A stretch of 15,959 bases of DNA from Armatimonadota bacterium. GTDB taxonomy: Bacteria > Sysuimicrobiota > Sysuimicrobiia > Sysuimicrobiales > Humicultoraceae. The DNA lies in assembly GCA_037446215.1 (NCBI GenBank), contig JBBIJB010000054.1, positions 1 through 15,959 on the forward strand, given 5' to 3'. The translations under genes and the position numbers were made by a program. The notes beneath the pieces are model-generated. The model was not told the DNA's origin, did no database searches, and saw only the letters and a list, made by a program, of their open reading frames with translations. Below are positions 65 through 15,959 of the stretch, piece after piece; position 1 is the stretch's first letter; every line of letters begins with the position of its first letter.

Positions 65-1618
65 GTGATGGGCGCGTTCCTGGACAGGGCCCGGGCCGAG
101 ATCGAGGGGAGCATCTACGCGCGCATGGTCCGCGAGGGCCTCTGCAGGTTCGGGAACGACTACGCTCTCGGACTCCGATGGCTGCGCCACCTCGGCTTCG
201 AGCAGGTCTCCACCAATCCCGTGTTGGCCGCCCTGGCCTACAAGGACGATCCGGGGCTGGCGCGGGCGTTTGGGTGCGGGATCCGCGCGCACAGGAAGTT
301 CGAGGGGTGGGCCGCGTCACCCGATGGGGCGGCGGATGAGATAGCGCTACACGCGACCCTGCTGGCGCTGTGGGACAACCTGCACGTCTACCGCCCGATC
401 TTCTACAACCTCGCCGCCGAGTCGGGCGGAGGCGTGGTCTCCTTCCAACTCAACCCGAACGTGGCCCACCTGGTCGATGAGAGCATCCAGGATGTCTTCA
501 CGGCGTTCGAGGAGGCGGCGGACGATCTGCGGGTCTACGACGACCACCTGCTGGCGGGCTACCCTGCCACGCGGGAGCGGGCCAGGCCAAACATGGTCAT
601 CAAGATCGCGGCCTCCTCTCCCGCCGCGAGGGAGATCGCGCGGACGATCAACGGGTTTGGGTTCGGCTCCAACATAACGGTGATCTACACCTGCTCCCAG
701 CAGGTGACGATGATCCTCGAAGAGATGGTCGGGATGGCCGCCGCCATCAGGAAGGGCATCATCCCGACACAGCTCTACATGACCAACATGGGCGGGCGGC
801 TCGAGAGCCACCTGCGCGAGGCCAAGCTGGAGGAGCTTTTCGGGGATCTCGCCTCCAGGATCGGGGAGGATCGGGCGCTGGAGCGTGTGGCGCATCTCGC
901 GGAGGCGAACGGGACGTCCTCCGCGGTCGGGCGGGCCGAGGGCTACGCGGCCAAGGTCGCCGCCGCGACGCGCTTCTCGCACCAGCGCACGCTCGACGCG
1001 AGCGTCGCAGCGGCCCTTGAAGGGGTGGCCTCCGAGGAAGAGCTCGGGTCGTGGGAGGAGGCGATCGGCAGGTCGGGCACCCTCGTCGCCCGCCGGGTCT
1101 GGAGGGTCTTCTTCTCGGATGAGAACCGTGCGAGGTGGGTCAACTACCTCTGCTCCTGCTTCGGGCTGACCCATGAGCAGGCCGAGACGGTCATGGGCCG
1201 GATCTGCTACCTGCCGGCCTCCAAGCGCAAGCCACAGGACACCTACTGGACGCTCGCCTCCAGGAACATGGTCCACACCGAGTTCCCAAACCATCAGGAG
1301 AACGTGCGTCGGCTCGCCGAGAGCGAGGGCTTCCGCCTTGCCGACTACGTCGAGTCGATCACCGGGGAGTTCCCCACGGAGACGATGGGACTGCTCCGCC
1401 AGATCCCGGACTTCGTCACGGCGTACGAGCTCACACCCGAGCTCAACGGGATCCTCAGCGAGGTCGGCATAGAGGGCGACTTCGGTGAAGGCGGGCACAC
1501 GCCGGAGGCGTGGGGGGAGTTCGGTTCCGTCAAGAAGACCCTGGCCGAGTTCAAAGCTGCCTACGACGCGTTTCGATCCGAGATGCTGGAGCTGTTCAAG
1601 GAGGCCGCGACCAGGTGA
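65..1618 (+). CDS. Transaldolase-family (class I Schiff-base aldolase) protein, large divergent form
   Basis: Transaldolase motifs occur in the expected order: GND (Asp), VSTNP (cf. TTNP), VSFQLNP (cf. STEV), NMVIKI (Schiff-base Lys, codon 602-604), SNIT (cf. NxT), MGGRL (cf. FVGR), LPASKR (cf. ASFR/WAST). GC3-rich codons. The start is uncertain because there is no well-spaced RBS. Confidence 0.8.
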   Translation: MMGAFLDRARAEIEGSIYARMVREGLCRFGNDYALGLRWLRHLGFEQVSTNPVLAALAYKDDPGLARAFGCGIRAHRKFEGWAASPDGAADEIALHATLLALWDNLHVYRPIFYNLAAESGGGVVSFQLNPNVAHLVDESIQDVFTAFEEAADDLRVYDDHLLAGYPATRERARPNMVIKIAASSPAAREIARTINGFGFGSNITVIYTCSQQVTMILEEMVGMAAAIRKGIIPTQLYMTNMGGRLESHLREAKLEELFGDLASRIGEDRALERVAHLAEANGTSSAVGRAEGYAAKVAAATRFSHQRTLDASVAAALEGVASEEELGSWEEAIGRSGTLVARRVWRVFFSDENRARWVNYLCSCFGLTHEQAETVMGRICYLPASKRKPQDTYWTLASRNMVHTEFPNHQENVRRLAESEGFRLADYVESITGEFPTETMGLLRQIPDFVTAYELTPELNGILSEVGIEGDFGEGGHTPEAWGEFGSVKKTLAEFKAAYDAFRSEMLELFKEAATR

Positions 1619-4400: not shown

Positions 4401-5426
4401 CTACAGGAGCCGGTGCACCGACAGCGACGAGAGCGCCACGGCCGCCACGAGCGCCACCAGGGCGGTGCCGGCGGCGATGGCCGTCACCTCTGTCGGACGC
4501 CTCTCCCATCCTATCCGGCGCCCGAGCTGGCGGTAGACGTCTCGCAGCTCTCCCGCGTTCGTCGCCCTGTAGTAGGTCCCTCCCGCGATCTCGGCCACCC
4601 CGCGCAGGGTCTCTTCGTCGAGGCGGACCCATATCGTGCGCCCGCCCACCGTGAGCGAGGTGCCCTCTGGGGTGCCGATGCCCACGGTGTGCACCGTGGC
4701 GTTCTGCTCGCGGGCGATCCGGGCCGCCTCGAGCGGCAGCGTTCCGCGGTTGCTCTGGCCGTCGGAGAGCAGAACGACTACGCCTGGTGGGAGCCTGCCG
4801 TCGGTGCCTTCCTGCCGGGCCGGGCCCGGCGCCTGCGGGATCCCCGGCAGCAGCGGCTCACCCATCTGCGCCGGATAGGGGGGGCGCTCCCTTCCCGGCA
4901 GGGCCCAAACCGCCTCCAGCAGCCCATCCCCGATCGCGGTCGCGAACTCGGTGGCCAGACGGCCGAGCGCGTCCATGACCTCCGCGTGATCCGTGGTGGG
5001 TGAGACGACCGTCGTTGCATAGCTGCTGAACGTCACCAGCCCGACGCGGAACCCCCTGGGTAGGGCCTCCACGAACGCCTTGGCGGCCGCCTTCGCCGCC
5101 TCCATCCTGTTCGGCGACATATCGGCGGCGAGCATGCTCCGGCTCACGTCCACGGAGAGCACCACCACGCCGTCAGGAGAGGGCTGGGGAAGTGGGGCGA
5201 CCGGCCGAGCCAGGCCCAGGATGATCGCCCCCAGCGCAAGCAGGTAGAGCGCGGGAGGCGCCCACCTCCGTCGTCTGCCCGGCACCGAGGCCGCCCTCGC
5301 GACGAGGGCGAGGTCGGGCATCACCACCGCCCGGCCGGGAGGGCGCGACAGCACTAACAGGTACAGGGCGGCAAGCACCGGCAGGAGCACCAAGCCGACC
5401 AGCGCCGCCGGAAGCTGGAAGCTCAA
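4401..5426 (-). CDS. VWA domain-containing membrane protein (BatA-like N-terminus)
   Basis: N-terminal hydrophobic helices and LGLARP; MIDAS motif DVSRS...TAIGDG...LLSDG; VHTVGIG; C-terminal TM helix. TTG start with GGAG upstream. Confidence 0.9.
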   Translation of the reverse strand: MSFQLPAALVGLVLLPVLAALYLLVLSRPPGRAVVMPDLALVARAASVPGRRRRWAPPALYLLALGAIILGLARPVAPLPQPSPDGVVVLSVDVSRSMLAADMSPNRMEAAKAAAKAFVEALPRGFRVGLVTFSSYATTVVSPTTDHAEVMDALGRLATEFATAIGDGLLEAVWALPGRERPPYPAQMGEPLLPGIPQAPGPARQEGTDGRLPPGVVVLLSDGQSNRGTLPLEAARIAREQNATVHTVGIGTPEGTSLTVGGRTIWVRLDEETLRGVAEIAGGTYYRATNAGELRDVYRQLGRRIGWERRPTEVTAIAAGTALVALVAAVALSSLSVHRLL

Positions 5427-5451
5427 CCGAGGTCTCCCACCGGTGCCGGGA

Positions 5452-6516
5452 TCACGGAATCCTCCGGAACCAGGCCAGCGACAACCCGCCGCCGGTCAGG
5501 ATCAAGAGGCCGGCGAACCCGGCCAGAAGGAACGTGACCTCGGTTCGCCTGCGCTCCCAGCCCAGGGCACTCCGAAGCTCCGCGGCCACGGCCGCGATCT
5601 GCTCCTCCCCGGCCTCGGCGACGTACTTGCCTCCCGTATCCTGCGATATCCGCTCGAGGGTGGCGGCGTCGAAGGGGGCCAGGACGAGTTGGCCGTCGAC
5701 ACGCATCACCGCACCGGCCCTAGTGCCCGCGCCGAACGAGTAGATACGCACCCTGGCCTCTCGCGCGAGCGCCGCCGCCTGCGCGGGATCAGGACCGAAG
5801 TTGCTCACGCCGTCCGAGAAGACGACCACGAAGGCGGGAGGGAGGTCGTCGACCGAGAGGGGCTTCTCCGCGGGCTGACCGGCGGCCCCGCCGGGCGAAG
5901 AACCGCCTCCGGGTACCTGCGGCTCCCCAGGGCGTGCCCTCTGCCTCAGCCGCTCCAGGCGCTCTCCCAGGAACTCCGCCCGTTTGGGCAGCACTCGGAG
6001 CGCTTCGAGTATGCCCCCGCCCATCGATGTGGCGGTCTGGGGCTTGAGCCGATCGAGGGACTCAGCCAGGGCGGCCCGGTCCGTCGTGGGAGGTAGCAGC
6101 AGCGTCCCGTACTCGCTGAACGCCACCAGCCCGATCCGCATCGATCGGGGCGCGCGCCCTGCCAGGGCCAGGGCCGCCTGCCGCGCGTAGCCGATGCGCG
6201 TCGGCTGGACGTCCGGGGCGGTCATGCTCCTGCTGGTGTCGACCGCTATCACCATCGCGGCCAGGTTCACGGGAACGGGAATCACAACCAACGGCCGTGC
6301 CGTGGCGAGCGCCAGGGCCAGCGCGCCGGCTACGTAGAGGGAGGCGGGGAGCGCCCGATGCCAGGGCGGCGGCTGAGAGACGAGCGCGCCCACAAGCCTG
6401 CTGTCGGCAAGGAGCCCGGTCACGACCCGGCGACGCCTGGCCAGCCCCACGTATCCCCAGACGAGCAGGGGGACGACCGCGGTCGCCGCGAGGGCTAGCG
6501 GCCAGGCGAACTCCAC
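5452..6516 (-). CDS. VWA domain-containing membrane protein (BatA-like), paralog of 4401-5426
   Basis: MEFAWP start, LATARP, MIDAS motif DTSRS...TSMGGG...VFSDG, LGWERR followed by a TM tail. GTG start with AGGAGG upstream; overlaps the end of the DUF58 gene. Confidence 0.9.
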   Translation of the reverse strand: MEFAWPLALAATAVVPLLVWGYVGLARRRRVVTGLLADSRLVGALVSQPPPWHRALPASLYVAGALALALATARPLVVIPVPVNLAAMVIAVDTSRSMTAPDVQPTRIGYARQAALALAGRAPRSMRIGLVAFSEYGTLLLPPTTDRAALAESLDRLKPQTATSMGGGILEALRVLPKRAEFLGERLERLRQRARPGEPQVPGGGSSPGGAAGQPAEKPLSVDDLPPAFVVVFSDGVSNFGPDPAQAAALAREARVRIYSFGAGTRAGAVMRVDGQLVLAPFDAATLERISQDTGGKYVAEAGEEQIAAVAAELRSALGWERRRTEVTFLLAGFAGLLILTGGGLSLAWFRRIP

Positions 6517-7415
6517 AGACGCCTCCTGCGCTGCTGCACGAAGCGGACCAACGGATCCACCATCGATCCTGCCGTCGTCAGCGCGAGCGTATCCACCCGC
6601 GAGCGCCTGAACGCCTGTCGCACGAGTTCGTTCCTGGCGCCGACGAGCCTCTCGAACTCCGCCCGCACACCCGGGTCAGAGGTGTCTATCCAGCACTGCT
6701 CTCCTGTCTCGGGATCTCGCACCGGCATCACCCCCACGTCGGGCAGCGCCTCCTCGGCCGGATCCCTGATCCAAACCGCGACCACATCGTGCCTGCGGGA
6801 AAGGTGTCGGAGCGGGCGCTCCCAGCCCTCGGGGGCGATGAAGTCGGAGATGACGAACACCAGGTGGCGCCTGCGCATCAGCCCCGCGGCGGCCCGAAGC
6901 GTGGCGGCCAGGTCGGTGGTGCCGCCGTCGCCGAACTCGCCCGGCTCCGCCGCCTGCAGGGAGTGCAGGAGGCGCATCGCGTGGCGCCTCCCCGTGCGCG
7001 GCGGCACAAGCGGGGCTCCCCGCCCGGGGAATGCGATCGCCCCGACCTTGTCCCCATGGCGCGTCACTATGAAGGCCGCCACCCCGGCGAACTCGATCGC
7101 CAGCTCGCGCTTGAGCCTCCTGCGGGTGCCGAACGCCATCGAGGGCGAGAGGTCAACCATCAGCCAGGCCGTGAGCTCTCGCTCCTCGGCGTACTGCCGC
7201 ACGAAGAGACGGCTCATCCTGGCGGTCACGTTCCAGTCGATGCGGCGCACCTCGTCGCCGGGCTGGTACTCCCGCACCTCGGCCAGGTCCAGGCTGGGGC
7301 CATAGAAGAGCCCGCGGTAGTCGCCGAACAGGAAGCCGTCCAGGTGCCTGACGACCGTGAACTCAAGCCGCCTCAGCAGCTGTTCCGGGGTCTCCTTGAG
7401 CAGGGCAACGTCCAT
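6495..7415 (-). CDS. DUF58 domain-containing protein (MoxR-associated)
   Basis: Hallmark EVREYQPGDEVRRIDWNVTAR, plus VDLSPSM and VISDF. Start placed at ATG 7415 (MDVALL), preceded by GGGAG and just after the moxR stop. Confidence 0.92.
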   Translation of the reverse strand: MDVALLKETPEQLLRRLEFTVVRHLDGFLFGDYRGLFYGPSLDLAEVREYQPGDEVRRIDWNVTARMSRLFVRQYAEERELTAWLMVDLSPSMAFGTRRRLKRELAIEFAGVAAFIVTRHGDKVGAIAFPGRGAPLVPPRTGRRHAMRLLHSLQAAEPGEFGDGGTTDLAATLRAAAGLMRRRHLVFVISDFIAPEGWERPLRHLSRRHDVVAVWIRDPAEEALPDVGVMPVRDPETGEQCWIDTSDPGVRAEFERLVGARNELVRQAFRRSRVDTLALTTAGSMVDPLVRFVQQRRRRLWSSPGR

Positions 7416-7422
7416 CGTCCCG

Positions 7423-8472
7423 CTACTCCCCCGAGAACCTCTCTCTGTTCGCGATGGCGGCGGCCCGCATCGCCTCGTGCGGGTCCCCAAGCGCCAGCCG
7501 CGGCGCCGAGAGCGCGCCGATCACCTCTCCCACTATCGCGTCGGCGCTAACCTCGTCGGCCAGGGCCTCGTACGAGAGCACGATCCTGTGACGGAGCACC
7601 TCCGGGGCCAGGTCTCGGACGTCCTCGGGCATCACGTACTCCCGCCCCCTGACCACGGCCAGCGCACGCGCGCCGATCACCATGTTCAGGGAGGCGCGCG
7701 GGCTCGCACCGTAGGAGATGTAGCGTCCGAGCTTCGCCAGACCGACCCCACCGGGGTTGCGCGTCGCGGTGGCCAGGTTGACCGAGTACTCCGTGATCTT
7801 CGGGTCCACGTAGACGAGATCCGCGACCCGCTGCAGCTCGAGCAGCTCCGAGGCGGGCAGCACCGGCTCGGCCTCGGGCGGAGTCCGGCTCATCCGGTCG
7901 ACTATGGTGACCTCCTCGTGGCGGCTGGGGTAGCCGATCACGACCTTGAACATGAACCGGTCCACCTGGGCCTCCGGCAAGGGATAGGTGCCCTCGCTCT
8001 CTATTGGGTTCTGGGTGGCCATGACCAGGAACGGCTGGGGCAACTGGAAGGTCTGCTTGCCGATCGTCACCTGCCGCTCCTGCATCGCCTCCAGAAGGGC
8101 GGACTGGACTTTGGCCGGCGCGCGGTTTATCTCGTCGGCCAATACGAAGTTGGCGAAGACCGGCCCCACCTCGGTCTCGAAGGTCCCCGAGTGCTGATTG
8201 TAGATTCGGGTACCGACCAGGTCCGCCGGCACCAGGTCGGGCGTGAACTGGATACGCTTGAACTCGCAGTCTATGGCACGGGCCGCGCTCTTGATCGCGA
8301 GGGTCTTTGCCAGCCCCGGGACGCCCTCGAGGAGGACGTGTCCCCTCGCGAGCAGCGCCACCAGCAGGCGCTCGAGCATCAGATCCTGCCCCACGATCAC
8401 CTTCTTGATCTCGTAGAGCACCTTTCGCGTGGTCGCCGACGCCTGATGGAAAACCTCTAGCGGCATCTGCAC
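7423..8472 (-). CDS. moxR: MoxR-family AAA+ ATPase
   Basis: GHVLLEGVPGLAKT (Walker A), RIQFTPDLVPAD, LADEINRAPAKVQSALLEAMQE (Walker B), ATQNPIESEGTYPLPEAQVDRF, GASPRA. Likely start GTG 8472 (GGAGG 7 nt upstream); ATG 8496 or 8466 are alternatives. Confidence 0.95.
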   Translation of the reverse strand: MQMPLEVFHQASATTRKVLYEIKKVIVGQDLMLERLLVALLARGHVLLEGVPGLAKTLAIKSAARAIDCEFKRIQFTPDLVPADLVGTRIYNQHSGTFETEVGPVFANFVLADEINRAPAKVQSALLEAMQERQVTIGKQTFQLPQPFLVMATQNPIESEGTYPLPEAQVDRFMFKVVIGYPSRHEEVTIVDRMSRTPPEAEPVLPASELLELQRVADLVYVDPKITEYSVNLATATRNPGGVGLAKLGRYISYGASPRASLNMVIGARALAVVRGREYVMPEDVRDLAPEVLRHRIVLSYEALADEVSADAIVGEVIGALSAPRLALGDPHEAMRAAAIANRERFSGE

Positions 8473-8536
8473 AGCCGGTCCTCCCTGACTCGTCATTGTG
8501 TTGGCCGCGGCCGAGCCTGCTCCTAGTTGAGCAAAC

Positions 8537-8651: not shown

Positions 8652-9533
8652 ATGATAGGGCATAAGGCAGCGAGGCGCCTCAGCGCACTGCTCACGGTCC
8701 TGGCAGCGGCGGCGCTGGCGTCGCCACAGTGGGGGCTCTGGCCGGTGGGAGGGACGCGGGCCAGCGCGGGGGCGGCCGACTCCACCGTCATCGTGCCGGG
8801 TCAGTCGCTCGGAGCTGTCCGGTTGGGCATGCCGTCTAGGTCGCTGCAGCAGATGTCGGGCTGGGGCCAGCCCGACTCGTCCAATGCCTCAGGCACGATA
8901 GTCTACATGGCCTACGCGAGGCAGGGCATCACGGTGGCGATCCGCGACGACCAGGTGGTCATGGCGCTGACTTCCAGCGAGCGCTACCGCACCGAGCGGG
9001 GGGTCGCGGTGGGGCGGCCCCTGTCGGCCGCGGTCGCGACCCACGGCCAGGCCCCGCCCTCGGGCGATGATCGCCTGGTCTGGTATGACAGCATCGGATT
9101 GGTGCTGGGGATCGGGAGCGGCACGATAATCCGAATAGGGGTGTTCGACCCCAAGAACTTCGTCCGCGCGATACTGGCGGATGAGCGGCCGGCGCGGGAC
9201 GTCTTCCTGACGGCCGCTCCCCCGAAGCTGGGGCCGGTCCAGGGGACGGGCGCCTCGGCGGTGCGCGAGGCCTCGGTGACCGTCACGCTGCGGAACCTGA
9301 GCCGCTCCTCGAAGGTATTGAACCCGAACTTCTTCGCGCTGGTCGACCGGGAGGGGCAGGTCCACCGGTACGACAAGGCGACCTTCCGGCTCGACGACGC
9401 GTGTCGATCGACGGTAACCGTCAGGGTTGGGGCGTCGGCCTCTTGCACGCTGCTGTTCGTCCTGCCCGCGGGACGCGCGCCACGCTCTATCTCGTTCGAC
9501 GACGGCGCCAGCGCGGACCAGCACTTCTTCTAG
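8652..9533 (+). CDS. Secreted hypothetical protein with an N-terminal internal repeat and a C-terminal DUF4352-like beta-sandwich
   Basis: Signal-peptide-like N-terminus (basic residues, then hydrophobic, then ASA); IVPGQSLGAVRLGM domain; C-terminal VTVTLRN..LNPNFFALVDREG...LLFVLP resembles DUF4352. Confidence 0.65.
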   Translation: MIGHKAARRLSALLTVLAAAALASPQWGLWPVGGTRASAGAADSTVIVPGQSLGAVRLGMPSRSLQQMSGWGQPDSSNASGTIVYMAYARQGITVAIRDDQVVMALTSSERYRTERGVAVGRPLSAAVATHGQAPPSGDDRLVWYDSIGLVLGIGSGTIIRIGVFDPKNFVRAILADERPARDVFLTAAPPKLGPVQGTGASAVREASVTVTLRNLSRSSKVLNPNFFALVDREGQVHRYDKATFRLDDACRSTVTVRVGASASCTLLFVLPAGRAPRSISFDDGASADQHFF

Positions 9534-9943
9534 CCCTCGACCACCACCTCGTAGGAGAGCTCCGCGGCCTTGCCCAGCATCGCGACGACCGAGCAGTACT
9601 TCTCCTGCGACAGCGAGACGGCCTTGCGCACCTGCTCCTCGGCCAGCCCCGGGCCTGAGGCGATGTAGCGCATCCGGACGGCCGTGAAGACCTTGGGGTG
9701 ATCGGCGGCGCGGTCGGCGTCGACCTCGATCCGCAGCTTCTCGATCGGCGCGCGCATCTTATTGAGAATGCTTATCACATCCATGCCGCTGCAGCCGGCC
9801 GCGGCCATCAGGACCGCCTCCATCGGGGAAGGGCCGGCGCCGCTGCCGCCGTGCTTTGGGGAGGCGTCCATCGTCAGGGTGACCCCCTCCGGGTTCACCC
9901 CTTCGAAGCGCATGCTGGGCTTCCAGTCAACGTTGACCTTCAT
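9530..9943 (-). CDS. OsmC/Ohr family protein (YhfA-like)
   Basis: GPSPMEAVLMAAAGCSGMDV and SQEKYCSV contain the two conserved cysteines; HPKVFT motif. ATGA overlap with the upstream peptidase. Confidence 0.92.
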   Translation of the reverse strand: MKVNVDWKPSMRFEGVNPEGVTLTMDASPKHGGSGAGPSPMEAVLMAAAGCSGMDVISILNKMRAPIEKLRIEVDADRAADHPKVFTAVRMRYIASGPGLAEEQVRKAVSLSQEKYCSVVAMLGKAAELSYEVVVEG

Positions 9944-11364
9944 CGCCTGTCGTCTCCCCTCTCTCGACTGCCTTGCGACCTGGAAGGCCTCGGCAGAGCG
10001 CCCTGCGCGTCTGCCTCCGCCAGGGCGCTGAACACCTCGGCGCTGGCGTGTATTCCGTCGAAGAACCTCTCGAGACTCAGGTTCTCGTTGGGGCTATGGT
10101 TGTTCTCGTCGGCGTTCGCGTAGGGAGCGCCGATGTGGTCGACCCCGAGGACATCAGGCCAGACGGCGTTGGGCAGGCTGCCGCCGCCCGAGAGGTTGAC
10201 GAAGGGTGCTACGCCCCGCGCCTTTTGGATGGCCGCGGCGACCACGCCGACGGCCGGATGGTCCGGGGACGTACGGCTGGCCTCCATCGAGCCGAAACCG
10301 CGCTCGATCACCTGGATCCTGGGATCCACCCCGGCCACGTGTGCCTCTACCTTCCGGAGGATGTCCCGGGTCTTCTGATCCACGACCAGGCGGATGTCTA
10401 TCCGGCACTCCGCCCTCGACGGGATGATCGTCTTCGAGCCGGGCCCGACGTATCCGCTGATGAAGCCGTTGATGTTGAAGTAGGGCTCGAGCATGATTCG
10501 ACGCCAGTAGGTAGGGCCATCTATCGTGAGGTTGTCCATCCCCATCGTCGCCGCGAACTCGCGTGGATCGTACTCCATCCCCGCGAGGAGCCGCTCCTCG
10601 GTAGGGCCGATCGGCCGCACGCCGTCGTAGAACCCCTCGATGAGTACCCGTCCCGATGGATCCACCATCGTCGAGAGCAGGTGGACGAGCATCCAGACCG
10701 GGTTGGGGGCGACGCCGCCCTTGTTGCCCGAGTGGTTGTCACGGTCTGCGCCCTGCGCGACCAGGGTGATGCCCAGTATTCCGCGGTTGCCCAGCGAGAC
10801 CACGGGCGCGCCGGTCGGGTGCAGCCCGCCGTCCGAGACGTAGACGAGGTCGGCGGCAAGCTTCTCCCTGTGCAGCCCGACGAACTCGCGGAGGTAGCCG
10901 GATCCCGACTCCTCCTCTCCCTCGAACACGAACTTGAGGTTGACCGGCGGGCCGCCCTCGGCGTCCATCCAGGCCTTGGCGGCGAGCACGTGCGCGATCA
11001 ACTGCCCCTTGTTGTCGCCGGTACCGCGGCCGTAGAGGCGTCCGTCGCGGACGGTAGGCTCGAAAGGAGGGCTCTCCCACAGCTCAAGCGGCTCGGGCGG
11101 CTGCACATCGTAGTGGCCGTAGCAGAGCAGCGTGTAGGCACTCGGGTCCTTGATGATCTCCCCGTAGACGATCGGCTGGGTCGGCGTCTCCATCACCTCG
11201 GAGGAGATCCCGAGGTCGCGCATGATCCCCGAGAGCAGGGAGGCGCACTCCCCCACGCCCTTGTCCTGGGCGCTGATGCTGGGCTGTCTAACGAGGTCCT
11301 TCAGTATCTCCAGCGATCTCTCGCGGTGGTCATCGACACGGCGGTGCACACGATCTGTGGACAT
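9940..11364 (-). CDS. M20/M25/M40 family metallo-hydrolase (dipeptidase-like)
   Basis: Metal-binding and catalytic motifs YGHYDVQP, GRGTGDNKG, EGEEESGS, YVSDG and NNHSPNE. Start placed at ATG 11364 (MSTDRV) with AGGAG 8 nt upstream. Confidence 0.92.
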   Translation of the reverse strand: MSTDRVHRRVDDHRERSLEILKDLVRQPSISAQDKGVGECASLLSGIMRDLGISSEVMETPTQPIVYGEIIKDPSAYTLLCYGHYDVQPPEPLELWESPPFEPTVRDGRLYGRGTGDNKGQLIAHVLAAKAWMDAEGGPPVNLKFVFEGEEESGSGYLREFVGLHREKLAADLVYVSDGGLHPTGAPVVSLGNRGILGITLVAQGADRDNHSGNKGGVAPNPVWMLVHLLSTMVDPSGRVLIEGFYDGVRPIGPTEERLLAGMEYDPREFAATMGMDNLTIDGPTYWRRIMLEPYFNINGFISGYVGPGSKTIIPSRAECRIDIRLVVDQKTRDILRKVEAHVAGVDPRIQVIERGFGSMEASRTSPDHPAVGVVAAAIQKARGVAPFVNLSGGGSLPNAVWPDVLGVDHIGAPYANADENNHSPNENLSLERFFDGIHASAEVFSALAEADAQGALPRPSRSQGSRERGDDRR

Positions 11365-11453
11365 CGGATGCGCTCCTCTCTCTGCTGTCGGGAGTCGTCC
11401 CAACCGCCGCTGAGTCATCTAGACTCCACTCAGCGCGTGGAGTTCGGCAAGAC

Positions 11454-12640: not shown

Positions 12641-14593
12641 CTATGGCCACTTCAACCCCAGCACGTTGTCTCCCAGGAACCACAGCGAGCCGATGGCAAC
12701 GGCGGTGTACAGAACGGCCTTGACCGGAGCCATCCGGGCAACCACGAGCAGCGCAGCAAGCATGTACAGCGCCGTGGCGGCGCGGAATCCAAGCACGCTG
12801 ATCAGGGCCGCGCAGGCGACGATACCCCCCAGGTGCGCTATGGCCCTGCCAGCGCGCCTCTTCCGCTCCAGGGGATCGGTCGCGGCGGGATCCTCGTCCG
12901 CCTCGTCATCATCCGCCTCAGTCGCACGCCCCCGCGACTCCTGGAACACCTGTGCCAGGACCACCAACAGTCCGGGGATCGCCACGGCCCAAGGCAGCAG
13001 CCGCGCCGCCGGCTGGTAGCGGTTCGCCTCCACCACTGCGCCGGCAAACAGGACGGCGAACAGCACGCCCACCAACGTAGGAAGCCGCCGGCGTTGCGGG
13101 GCGCTGGTCTGGCTGGTCGCAGGAACGGCACGATCCCGCCGGCGCCGGAGGAAGCCCCACGCGAACGGCGCAACGAGCAGCACGCCGAAGACGACGACCC
13201 AGGGCCGCAGCAGCCAGGTGTAGCCCTCGTAGAGGTTTAGGGTGAGCCAGAAATACCTCTCCATGGGCAGCGCCAGCACGTACCCGATGAGCAGTGGTGC
13301 GCGCGGCCAGCCAGTCTGCTTCATCCCCCAGCCGAAGAGACCCAGCAGGAGTAGCAGCCAGATCTCGCCCATCGCGTTCGAAACCTGGTAGGCACCCAGC
13401 AGCATGGTCAGCAGGACCGGGGGCGCGATGTAGGAGAAAGGCAACCGGGTCAGCCTGGCCAGCGACGGACTCAGCAGGAAGCACAGCCCGGCTCCGACAG
13501 CGCTGGAGAACGCGAACGACCAGACGATCACATACATCAGATCGAGGTGGTCGGTCACGAAGCGCGGACCGGGCAGGATGCCGTATCGCAGCAACGCGCC
13601 CACCATCAGCGCCGCGGTGGCGCTGCCCGGGACGCTGAACAGCAGTGTTGGGATCAGGTCTCCTGCCATGACCGAGTTGTTGGAGGCCTCAGCGGCGATC
13701 AGCCCGCGGATGTCGCCCTTGCCGAAGTTCTCCTTGTCCTTGGCCGTGGCCACCGCCTGCCCGTAGGCCATCATCGAGCCCGCGGTGGCACCCAGCGCCG
13801 GGAGGATACCCACCCACATTCCGACCAGCGAGCCGCGCACAACAAGCCAGCGGTGCCGAATCACGTCACGCACACCCTCGGCCCACCCAGTACCGAGGTC
13901 GATCCGCTGGCTGATGCCGCCACCCCTGGATAGGATTGAGATCATCTCTGCGATCCCAAAGAGGCCGAGGGCCACTATCACAACGTTGAACCCGTCGGCC
14001 AGGAACATCTGGCCGAAGGTGAACCTCAGTTCGGCAACCGCCGGGGTAGGGCCCACGGTCCCCAACAGCAATCCAAACAGGCCCGCGGCGATCCCCTTCA
14101 GCGGCGCCTTGCCGAGCAGGCCGCCGGCAAACGACACTCCCAGCGCACAAAGCATGAAAAGCTCTGGGGACCCGAAGGTCAGCACCAGGGGGCGCGCGAT
14201 GGGGATCGAAAGCGTGAGCCCAATCGCTCCTATGATCCCGCCGATGAGTGAGGCAAGATAGGCTGCGGAGAGAGCCCGCGCGGCTTGACCTCTCCTAGCC
14301 AGCGGATGCCCCTCAAGCGCCGATGGCGTGGAGGAGGCCGAGCCAGGCGCACCGAGTAGGACAGAGGTGATGGTGTCCGAGGTATGCACGACCGCAACGG
14401 CACCGGTCATGGTGGCGAGCGCGGCCATGGCGTCGAGCTTATAGATGAAGGGCAGCATGATGCTGACTGCCACGATCCCGCCCAGTCCCGGGAGGATGCC
14501 CACCAGGATCCCGGCGCAGATCCCAAGCATCATCAAGCCCAGGCGTACTGGATCCAAGAAGATAGCCGCGGCCGCGGCAATCGCCTCTGCCAT
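12641..14593 (-). CDS. tctA: Tripartite tricarboxylate transporter permease TctA with fused C-terminal TctB-like domain
   Basis: GILVGILPGLG, LLGAPG, EGHPLARRG, GILPALG, FGKG..G..AAEASNN, LFSVPG and PRAPLLIGYVL are TctA features (about 480 aa). The last ~150 aa carry about 4 TM segments ending in LGLKWP, like TctB. Confidence 0.88.
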   Translation of the reverse strand: MAEAIAAAAAIFLDPVRLGLMMLGICAGILVGILPGLGGIVAVSIMLPFIYKLDAMAALATMTGAVAVVHTSDTITSVLLGAPGSASSTPSALEGHPLARRGQAARALSAAYLASLIGGIIGAIGLTLSIPIARPLVLTFGSPELFMLCALGVSFAGGLLGKAPLKGIAAGLFGLLLGTVGPTPAVAELRFTFGQMFLADGFNVVIVALGLFGIAEMISILSRGGGISQRIDLGTGWAEGVRDVIRHRWLVVRGSLVGMWVGILPALGATAGSMMAYGQAVATAKDKENFGKGDIRGLIAAEASNNSVMAGDLIPTLLFSVPGSATAALMVGALLRYGILPGPRFVTDHLDLMYVIVWSFAFSSAVGAGLCFLLSPSLARLTRLPFSYIAPPVLLTMLLGAYQVSNAMGEIWLLLLLGLFGWGMKQTGWPRAPLLIGYVLALPMERYFWLTLNLYEGYTWLLRPWVVVFGVLLVAPFAWGFLRRRRDRAVPATSQTSAPQRRRLPTLVGVLFAVLFAGAVVEANRYQPAARLLPWAVAIPGLLVVLAQVFQESRGRATEADDDEADEDPAATDPLERKRRAGRAIAHLGGIVACAALISVLGFRAATALYMLAALLVVARMAPVKAVLYTAVAIGSLWFLGDNVLGLKWP

Positions 14594-14617: not shown

Positions 14618-15748
14618 CTAGATCACAACGTTGAACTTCGTACGCAGTAGGTTCAGTATGTACTGCCGCACGTCCAGGGTGATGTTCAGCGACCGCAGAA
14701 CGGTCGCCTCGGCAAGATCCCCCCTGGTCACCGGGTAGCCCTCCAGGACAACCTTGGCCTGCTGCTGGAACGCGGGATCACGCTGCATGCGGTCGACGGC
14801 CTCGCGAAGCGCGCGGATCGCATCCTCAGGGGTGCCCTCCGGTACCCAGAAGGTCTTCTGGAAGGAGAACCCGGCGGAGAGGATAGACCGAAAGGCCTTG
14901 TAGCGAATGTAGCCGTCCGGCTTGTTCTTGTGGAGGATCTGGAAGGCCTCGTACACCGTCGGCAGGTCGGGGAACCCTGGATCGCGGACGATCTGCCCGC
15001 GCTCGTTGAGCTGGCCCAGCGAGAAGATGGGTACCGCCTTGCCTTCTCTGACCATAGGGCCCACCTGAGAGGAGAACGCCGGCGTCGTCTGGTGGTCGAT
15101 GCTGATCTCGCCGCGCTCGAAGGCCAGGCGTACCGGTCCGCGTCCCTCGAAGCCGAAGACCGCCTTGACGTCCATGCCGAGCACCTCGTAGGCGAGCAGC
15201 GTGGTGAGGTCGACCGAGGTGGGGCTTATGCTGCCGTAGACAAGCCGCTCCTGCGGCTTGAGGAGGTCCCCGACCTTGCGGATCCCGGTGCGGGGTGAGA
15301 CATATACGGCGCCGCCTACCCCGTTCACCTTTATGAGCTTCCATTTCCGGAAGTCATACTGCACCTGAGGCACGCCCAGGATGAACGGTATCTTGTTAGA
15401 GCCGGATGCCGCGATGATCATCAAGCCGTCGTTCTTGGCGTTGTTCCAGTACCAGTTCGCGCCGGTAACGCCCCCGCCGCCGGCCATGTTCCTGACCACA
15501 ACCCGTGGGTTGCCGGGCGTGTGCTTCTCGAAGAAGGAAGCGAAGAACCGTGCGTCCAGGTCGGTGCCGCCGCCGGGGGCAAAGGTGACCAGCAACTCGA
15601 TGGTCTTGCCCGCGTAGAACGGGGGCTGTGCCTGCCCCTCGGGAGGGATCGCAGCCAGGGTGCTCAGCATCAAGATGAGCGTAACACCGAGCACGGCTTG
15701 TCTGCGGGTGCTTGCGGCCGCGGGCGGGCCGATCAAAGACAATCCCAT
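14618..15748 (-). CDS. tctC: Tripartite tricarboxylate transporter substrate-binding protein (TctC/Bug family)
   Basis: Signal peptide (TRRQAVL, possibly Tat-like), FYAGKTIELLVTFAPGGGTD, VRNMAGGGG, DG motif, PDLPT and PEGTP. SD AGGAGG 6 nt upstream of the ATG. Confidence 0.88.
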   Translation of the reverse strand: MGLSLIGPPAAASTRRQAVLGVTLILMLSTLAAIPPEGQAQPPFYAGKTIELLVTFAPGGGTDLDARFFASFFEKHTPGNPRVVVRNMAGGGGVTGANWYWNNAKNDGLMIIAASGSNKIPFILGVPQVQYDFRKWKLIKVNGVGGAVYVSPRTGIRKVGDLLKPQERLVYGSISPTSVDLTTLLAYEVLGMDVKAVFGFEGRGPVRLAFERGEISIDHQTTPAFSSQVGPMVREGKAVPIFSLGQLNERGQIVRDPGFPDLPTVYEAFQILHKNKPDGYIRYKAFRSILSAGFSFQKTFWVPEGTPEDAIRALREAVDRMQRDPAFQQQAKVVLEGYPVTRGDLAEATVLRSLNITLDVRQYILNLLRTKFNVVI

Positions 15749-15752
15749 GCCA

Positions 15753-15959
15753 CACCTCCTGGACCTTCAGGCCGTCGTCCAGGACCGCCTTGATCCGGAG
15801 GTCGTAAGTCCCCTCCTGCTTCCCGTGCTCGCCGCAGACCCCTTTCGTCAGCATCCTCCTGCAGATGGGGCAGCGCTTGATGAGCCCCGACCCCTTCTGG
15901 ACGTCCACGATCGCTCCCGTGAACTTCGCCTCCTGGGGGCTGACCTCGATCGCCTCTTC
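15753..15959 (-). pseudogene. rpa: Truncated internal fragment of euryarchaeal replication protein A (zinc-finger RPA); open at the window edge and broken at ~15753
   Basis: The frame is open from the edge and reads EEAIEVSPQEAKFTGAIVDVQKGSGLIKRCPICRRMLTKGVCGEHGKQEGTYDLRIKAVLDDGLKVQEV. It contains CX2CX8CX2H (15872-15825) flanked by GSGLIKRCP and DLRIKAVLDDG, recalled as characteristic of methanogen/haloarchaeal RPA. After VQEV the frame runs out of frame into tctC. Confidence 0.8.

Follow-up and report, generated by a model that had tools for sequence, protein, structure and literature searches.

How a piece of an archaeal replication protein A (RPA) gene came to adjoin bacterial genes is the question raised by contig C54 of genome G000 (2.16 Mb in 149 contigs, about 68% GC, with a reported completeness of 91% and contamination of 1.9%). 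The entire contig of 15,959 nt was analysed and is referred to here as the window. A preliminary description of this DNA placed an archaeal RPA fragment in its last 207 bp, regarded the neighbouring genes as bacterial, and preferred a chimera over the real capture of archaeal DNA by a bacterium. The features of the window on which the answer depends are the following.

4401-8496, minus strand: MoxR, DUF58 and two VWA genes
14618..15748, minus strand: tctC/Bug-like gene for a periplasmic substrate-binding protein (376 aa; relatives named TctC/Bug)
15396..15959, minus strand: artefactual 187-aa open frame made by the join, in which the RPA frame runs on, out of frame, over tctC
15749..15775, minus strand: native bacterial 5' leader of the tctC-like gene, unchanged in sister-strain contigs
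15753..15959, minus strand: RPA reading frame, residues 265-333 of a 415-aa RPA, including a CX2CX8CX2H zinc finger
15754..15775, no strand: 22-nt stretch present in both parents (archaeal locus L001 and the sister-strain contigs), the bridge of the chimera
15776..15959, minus strand: archaeal-only DNA, 184 nt, an internal piece of a Methanothrix/Methanocrinis-type RPA gene that runs off the contig end

The RPA fragment and its bacterial neighbours

Translation of positions 15753-15959 on the minus strand yields 69 codons, EEAIEVSPQEAKFTGAIVDVQKGSGLIKRCPICRRMLTKGVCGEHGKQEGTYDLRIKAVLDDGLKVQEV, which is the peptide that had been quoted before without its strand, and the zinc finger claimed for it is present as C30-x2-C33-x8-C42-x2-H45. 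The fragment constitutes the last 207 nt of the contig and thereby its terminus. The similarity to RPA greatly exceeds what chance would produce. In a protein search, 560 of 586 scored longer candidates matched the fragment at E<=0.001; the best 120 of these 586 candidates were 71-99% identical to it, the organism names among these 120 were all Methanothrix, Methanotrichaceae or Methanosarcinales, and many of them were labelled replication factor A, replication factor A1 or replication protein A. Amino acid identity to the 414-416 aa RPA of Methanothrix and Methanocrinis amounted to 97-99%. Moreover, the NCBIfam model NF005553 ('replication factor A') was matched at E=3.8e-30 over model positions 162-232, a partial match that stays well under the whole-protein cut-off, as is to be expected of 69 residues. 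A search of PDB sequences with these 69 residues gave no match at E<=10.

The loci retrieved from genome_contigs that carry a full-length RPA belonged without exception to Methanotrichaceae, Methanosarcinales or Methanobacteriota (46 of 46). The best of these archaeal loci, L001 from a Methanothrix sp. MAG, displayed 96.6% DNA identity to the fragment over 206 nt, differing at 7 of the 206 positions, and 13 further Methanotrichaceae loci were 87-94% identical at the DNA level; the exact donor was not found among the 46 loci. Since the RPA frame is cut off by the contig end, it lacks a start codon, and it has no stop at the junction either. With 69 of about 415 codons and neither start nor stop it is therefore a gene scrap and not a gene; it lacks 264 residues at the N-terminus and 82 at the C-terminus, and a complete reading frame with OB folds, start and stop is not present. 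On the other contigs of G000, chance-level matches to RPA were the only ones obtained, and no match to the 46 archaeal loci (together 268 kb) was found. Base composition was dropped as a discriminator: the fragment has 65.2% GC and 94% GC3, the 207-nt tiles of the genome have a mean GC of 68.5% +/- 3.8, and since 20% of these tiles are as low in GC or lower, composition is uninformative.

The Bug/TctC and MoxR-DUF58-VWA neighbours named in the preliminary description were recovered, the TctC Pfam match of the 376-aa ORF being weak (21.2 bits vs a cut-off of 27) and its relatives named TctC/Bug sharing 87-47% identity with it. The organism names given for these relatives were mostly 'Armatimonadota bacterium' (MAGs), with a few Thermodesulfobacteriota. 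Downstream of tctC follow genes for a TctA-TctB protein, PrpF, an M20 peptidase and OsmC, and then MoxR, DUF58, two VWA proteins, an amidase and a UxaE-like protein. Genome G001, of the same genus, encodes a tctC-like orthologue (84% nt), and its 84-kb contig is syntenic with the window at 65-80% DNA identity. Judged by sequence similarity, the RPA family of Methanotrichaceae is the origin of the fragment, and the contig outside the fragment is bacterial. The bacterial flank and the archaeal fragment together place the meeting of two domains, as proposed before, at about 15753-15775.

Several further observations were made in the bacterial part. The TctA-TctB protein is encoded by a single ORF of 650 aa (12641-14593, minus strand) with a TctA domain at residues 18-435 followed by a TctB domain at residues 507-650; TctA and TctB are usually separate genes, and here they appear to be fused, with TctB at the C-terminus. 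Gene order at 9940-11418 of the window is unlike that at 6839-8184 of L055 (G001:C7): the M20-peptidase block lies between PrpF and a 293-aa ORF in the window, and beyond a tRNA-like element upstream of tctC in G001, a difference that may reflect a genuine rearrangement, a paralogue or a further problem of the assembly. Two ORFs, at 65-1618 (plus strand, 517 aa) and 8652-9533 (plus strand, 293 aa), had no Pfam family at E<=1e-5. A tctC-like paralogue of about 50% amino acid identity is found at G000:C45:4694-5781, where by tblastn it seems to be divided between two frames, with pieces that overlap at residues 66-98; a frameshift or an error of assembly could account for this.

The shared stretch and the native continuation

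Alignment to five full-length relatives revealed that the RPA similarity breaks off after ...LKVQEV, from where the archaeal proteins read LINRER... and the window reads WHGIVF.... At the DNA level, the archaeal homology ends at 15754, or at 15753 where the archaeal codon is GTG, and past this point archaea have CTGATCAAC... and the window has TGGCATG.... The exact 22-mer at 15754-15775 occurs in L001 (1 of the 46 archaeal loci), and the 22-mer extended by one position occurs in none of the 46; with a donor whose last codon here was GTG, the bridge would comprise 23 nt. In the archaeal RPA gene these 22 nt encode ..DGLKVQEV, and in the bacterial locus they contain the Shine-Dalgarno sequence AGGAGG (15755-15760 in plus-strand coordinates, read on the minus strand), 6 nt before the tctC ATG; G001 has GGAGG at the equivalent position. 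Since positions 15754-15775 also belong to the bacterial locus, archaeal-only DNA starts at 15776 and not at 15753, and the earlier boundary therefore stands near 15753 as the end of archaeal homology and has to be moved as the start of archaeal-only DNA. Outside the junction, G000 shares with the 268 kb of archaeal loci 55 stretches of at least 18 nt, 4 of at least 20 nt, 2 of at least 21 nt and 1 of at least 22 nt. This 268-kb sample amounts to about a tenth of a whole archaeal genome, and a community comprises many genomes. A chance origin of the shared 22-mer is plausible, and such chance sharing is to be expected.

A search of sequencing runs identified four runs of one study (X1-X4) that contain 31-58% of the sampled words of 15350-15959, and the Logan contigs of these runs were compared with positions 14900-15959 of the window. 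The contigs of X2 (651 nt, 6 differences from the window) and X3 (335 nt, 4 differences) do not differ from the window in 15703-15775, and beyond 15775 they continue for 204 and 64 letters, respectively, in a sequence that is unlike the window and identical between the two in its first 30 letters. Because both match through 15775, the bacterial locus natively contains 15749-15775 and then continues differently. The X2/X3 strain is a sister strain, about 1.3% different in this region. Within its continuation, 22 letters, TGGTCGGGGCGGGCGGACTCGA (by-eye comparison), are found in the 84-kb contig of G001, where TGGTCGGGGCGGGCGGACTCGAACC... lies 34 nt upstream of the tctC ATG; in X2/X3 these 22 letters are 35 nt away from the ATG.

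This upstream sequence in G001 corresponds, in reverse complement, to the 3' end of a tRNA and belongs to a tRNA-like element at about 9715-9795 of L055, of which the 37 nt at the 3' end are 92% identical to tRNA-Pro(ggg) of G000 contig C23. At this element ARAGORN called no tRNA and Rfam gave nothing at E<=0.1; since only the 3' 37 nt resemble tRNA-Pro and a whole tRNA was not called, it is treated as a partial tRNA, which may be the leftover attachment-site copy of an integrated element or a degenerate tRNA. The recurrence of the X2/X3 end upstream of tctC in G001 identifies the tRNA-like element as the native neighbour of the gene. The native upstream region was not found on other contigs of G000, where the G001 upstream sequence matched only tRNA-Pro(ggg) on C23 and tRNA-Ala on C79. 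The tRNA-Pro(cgg) gene at the end of C34 was rejected as a candidate for this region, as its sequence differs. Among the 32 tRNAs called by ARAGORN in G000, Pro(ggg) and Pro(cgg) are present and Pro(tgg) is absent.

X1 is the only run without differences from the window and is therefore possibly its source. Its single contig over the tctC start ends at 15759, has a depth of 3.1 and makes neither continuation visible, so that the native form is known only from the sister strain and the congener. In the assembled contigs of X1-X4, which were compared in place of raw reads, position 15775/15776 is not bridged, and the bacterial depth in these runs is about 3-7. For 15776-15959, no Logan contig of X1-X4 was found at a likeness of at least 90%, a gap that is no evidence in itself; the archaeon may be too rare in these runs, or other data may have been assembled. 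Exact scans of metagenome_contigs gave no match for 47 nt spanning the tctC start and the shared stretch, nor for 33 nt that begin in the shared stretch and extend into the RPA piece, and hence this collection yielded neither form in an independent copy, nor an exact donor.

Related genomes were likewise searched. Among the 93 further genomes available for the phylum, of which 53 are at least 90% complete and at most 5% contaminated, no match to a full-length RPA was found. The fragment DNA matched none of 40 relatives; 17 of the 40 matched the query, and matches to the tctC-like part were listed for 15 of the 40. Both tallies, of 93 genomes and of 40 relatives, include two genomes flagged as unpublished (G015 and G024). 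The presence in related genomes or independent assemblies by which a horizontal transfer is recognised was thus not found. The marks of a chimera were found: different organisms on either side, an exact shared stretch, and a different native continuation in independent data.

Origin of the join

The junction is almost certainly an artefact and not an inter-domain gene transfer, and is probably an in-silico assembly (graph) misjoin. We infer, rather than observe, that the assembler made the join, in the following manner. A low-coverage contig of an Armatimonadota-like bacterium would have ended in the 35-nt leader between the tRNA-like element and the tctC start, tRNA-like elements being typical places for contigs to break. 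The 22 nt of this leader that include AGGAGG (15754-15775) also occur, by chance, in a Methanothrix-type RPA gene, and a de Bruijn-graph assembler working at short k (about 21, which is a usual smallest assembly k) could cross these shared k-mers from the bacterial path to the archaeal path, which would add 184 nt before the contig stops. Misjoins through short k-mers usually leave such an identity at the join, here of 22 nt. That k-mers common to different genomes can connect their graphs and give rise to chimeric contigs is described in PMC7299287.

An artefact could also have arisen at the bench, if template switching or incomplete extension in library PCR or whole-genome amplification had produced a single chimeric library molecule. 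Priming would occur via the shared 22 nt, and the assembler would faithfully extend a low-coverage end with the resulting read. Such an event is consistent with a join that lies within a 22-nt identity able to prime template switching, with a foreign tail of 184-207 nt, about the length of one short read, and with a bacterial depth at the join of about 3 in X1, at which a single read could extend the contig end. However, 22 nt barely exceeds the smallest k of common assemblers, which makes the in-silico route the simpler one, and the bench origin is therefore considered unlikely, even though a library chimera formed via the same 22 nt would look identical to a graph misjoin here. By whichever of these two routes it was made, the junction is an artefact. 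Far less probable still is a real capture, in which illegitimate recombination at the 22-nt microhomology placed Methanothrix DNA upstream of tctC, where it replaced the tRNA-like neighbour in the strain behind the window. In its favour, the sequence is present in the deposited assembly, recombination at such a microhomology is possible in principle, the native continuation is not seen in the X1 contig, and the ribosome-binding site and ATG of tctC are intact across the join. The ribosome-binding site, however, is intact because it is part of the shared 22-mer. Capture is moreover opposed by the position of the fragment at a contig terminus, by the 96.6% DNA identity to the donor lineage that it retains, by the tRNA-like element that takes its place in the closest strain and the congener, and by the lack of RPA in all 93 genomes of the phylum; furthermore, an internal gene piece with neither start nor stop offers no function to select for. 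The earlier preference for a chimera over capture is borne out by the contig end, the 22-nt overlap, the native continuation seen elsewhere and the lack of RPA in these 93 genomes.

Practically no credence is given to the view that a cross-domain junction does not exist, either since the contig would be wholly archaeal or since the fragment would be a bacterial or phage RPA-like gene. Nothing was found in its favour; TctC, MoxR, DUF58 and VWA genes are present in some archaea. The named relatives of the tctC-like gene are bacterial, mostly Armatimonadota, synteny at 73-80% with the bacterial genome of the same genus extends over the 4.1 kb adjoining the junction and further parts of the window, and G000 itself encodes a bacterial SSB on C36 (124 bits, above the cut-off); the neighbouring genes are accordingly not archaeal. 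The organism names among the best 120 relatives of the fragment are all archaeal, and in place of bacterial or phage proteins that continue through WHG, archaeal proteins were retrieved that continue as ...VQEV-LINRER.... Explanations beyond a graph misjoin, a library chimera and a capture are left with very little probability.

Implications and comparison with known systems

With the graph misjoin as the preferred reading, the significance of this locus is confined to quality control, as one contig of a publicly available MAG ends in about 184 nt of archaeal DNA. The join creates a false ORF of 187 aa and a false signal of RPA in a bacterium that could be misread as inter-domain transfer, and an RPA fragment with a bacterial label could contaminate protein databases. 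Trimming of C54 after 15775 and disregard of the 187-aa ORF would remedy this. The case illustrates that a chance identity of 22 nt is able to bridge genomes of two domains at low coverage. A real capture, if true, would represent a very recent and unameliorated uptake of archaeal DNA by a bacterium, upstream of a tctC operon in a subsurface community.

Among known systems, the Methanotrichaceae RPA (414-416 aa) resembles the fragment at 97-99% over 69 residues, in the zinc-finger part of the last OB-fold region, but the fragment retains only 69 of its about 415 codons. Real archaeon-to-bacterium transfers have in common with C54 that archaeal sequence adjoins bacterial genes on one record; accepted inter-domain transfers, however, concern whole, expressed genes that are common to related genomes and lie inside contigs, and none of this applies to C54. 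The likeness is with inter-genome chimeric contigs of short-read metagenomes, which have sides of different taxonomy, a shared stretch at the join, a terminal foreign tail, low coverage, and a different native continuation in independent data. Such contigs are mostly discussed for related species with long homologous regions, whereas C54 combines a bacterium with an archaeon by a chance identity between a non-coding leader with a Shine-Dalgarno sequence and a coding sequence (DGLKVQEV). The chimeric end of C54 is thus no biological novelty, and is unusual only in its cross-domain partners and in the chance bridge between leader and codons.
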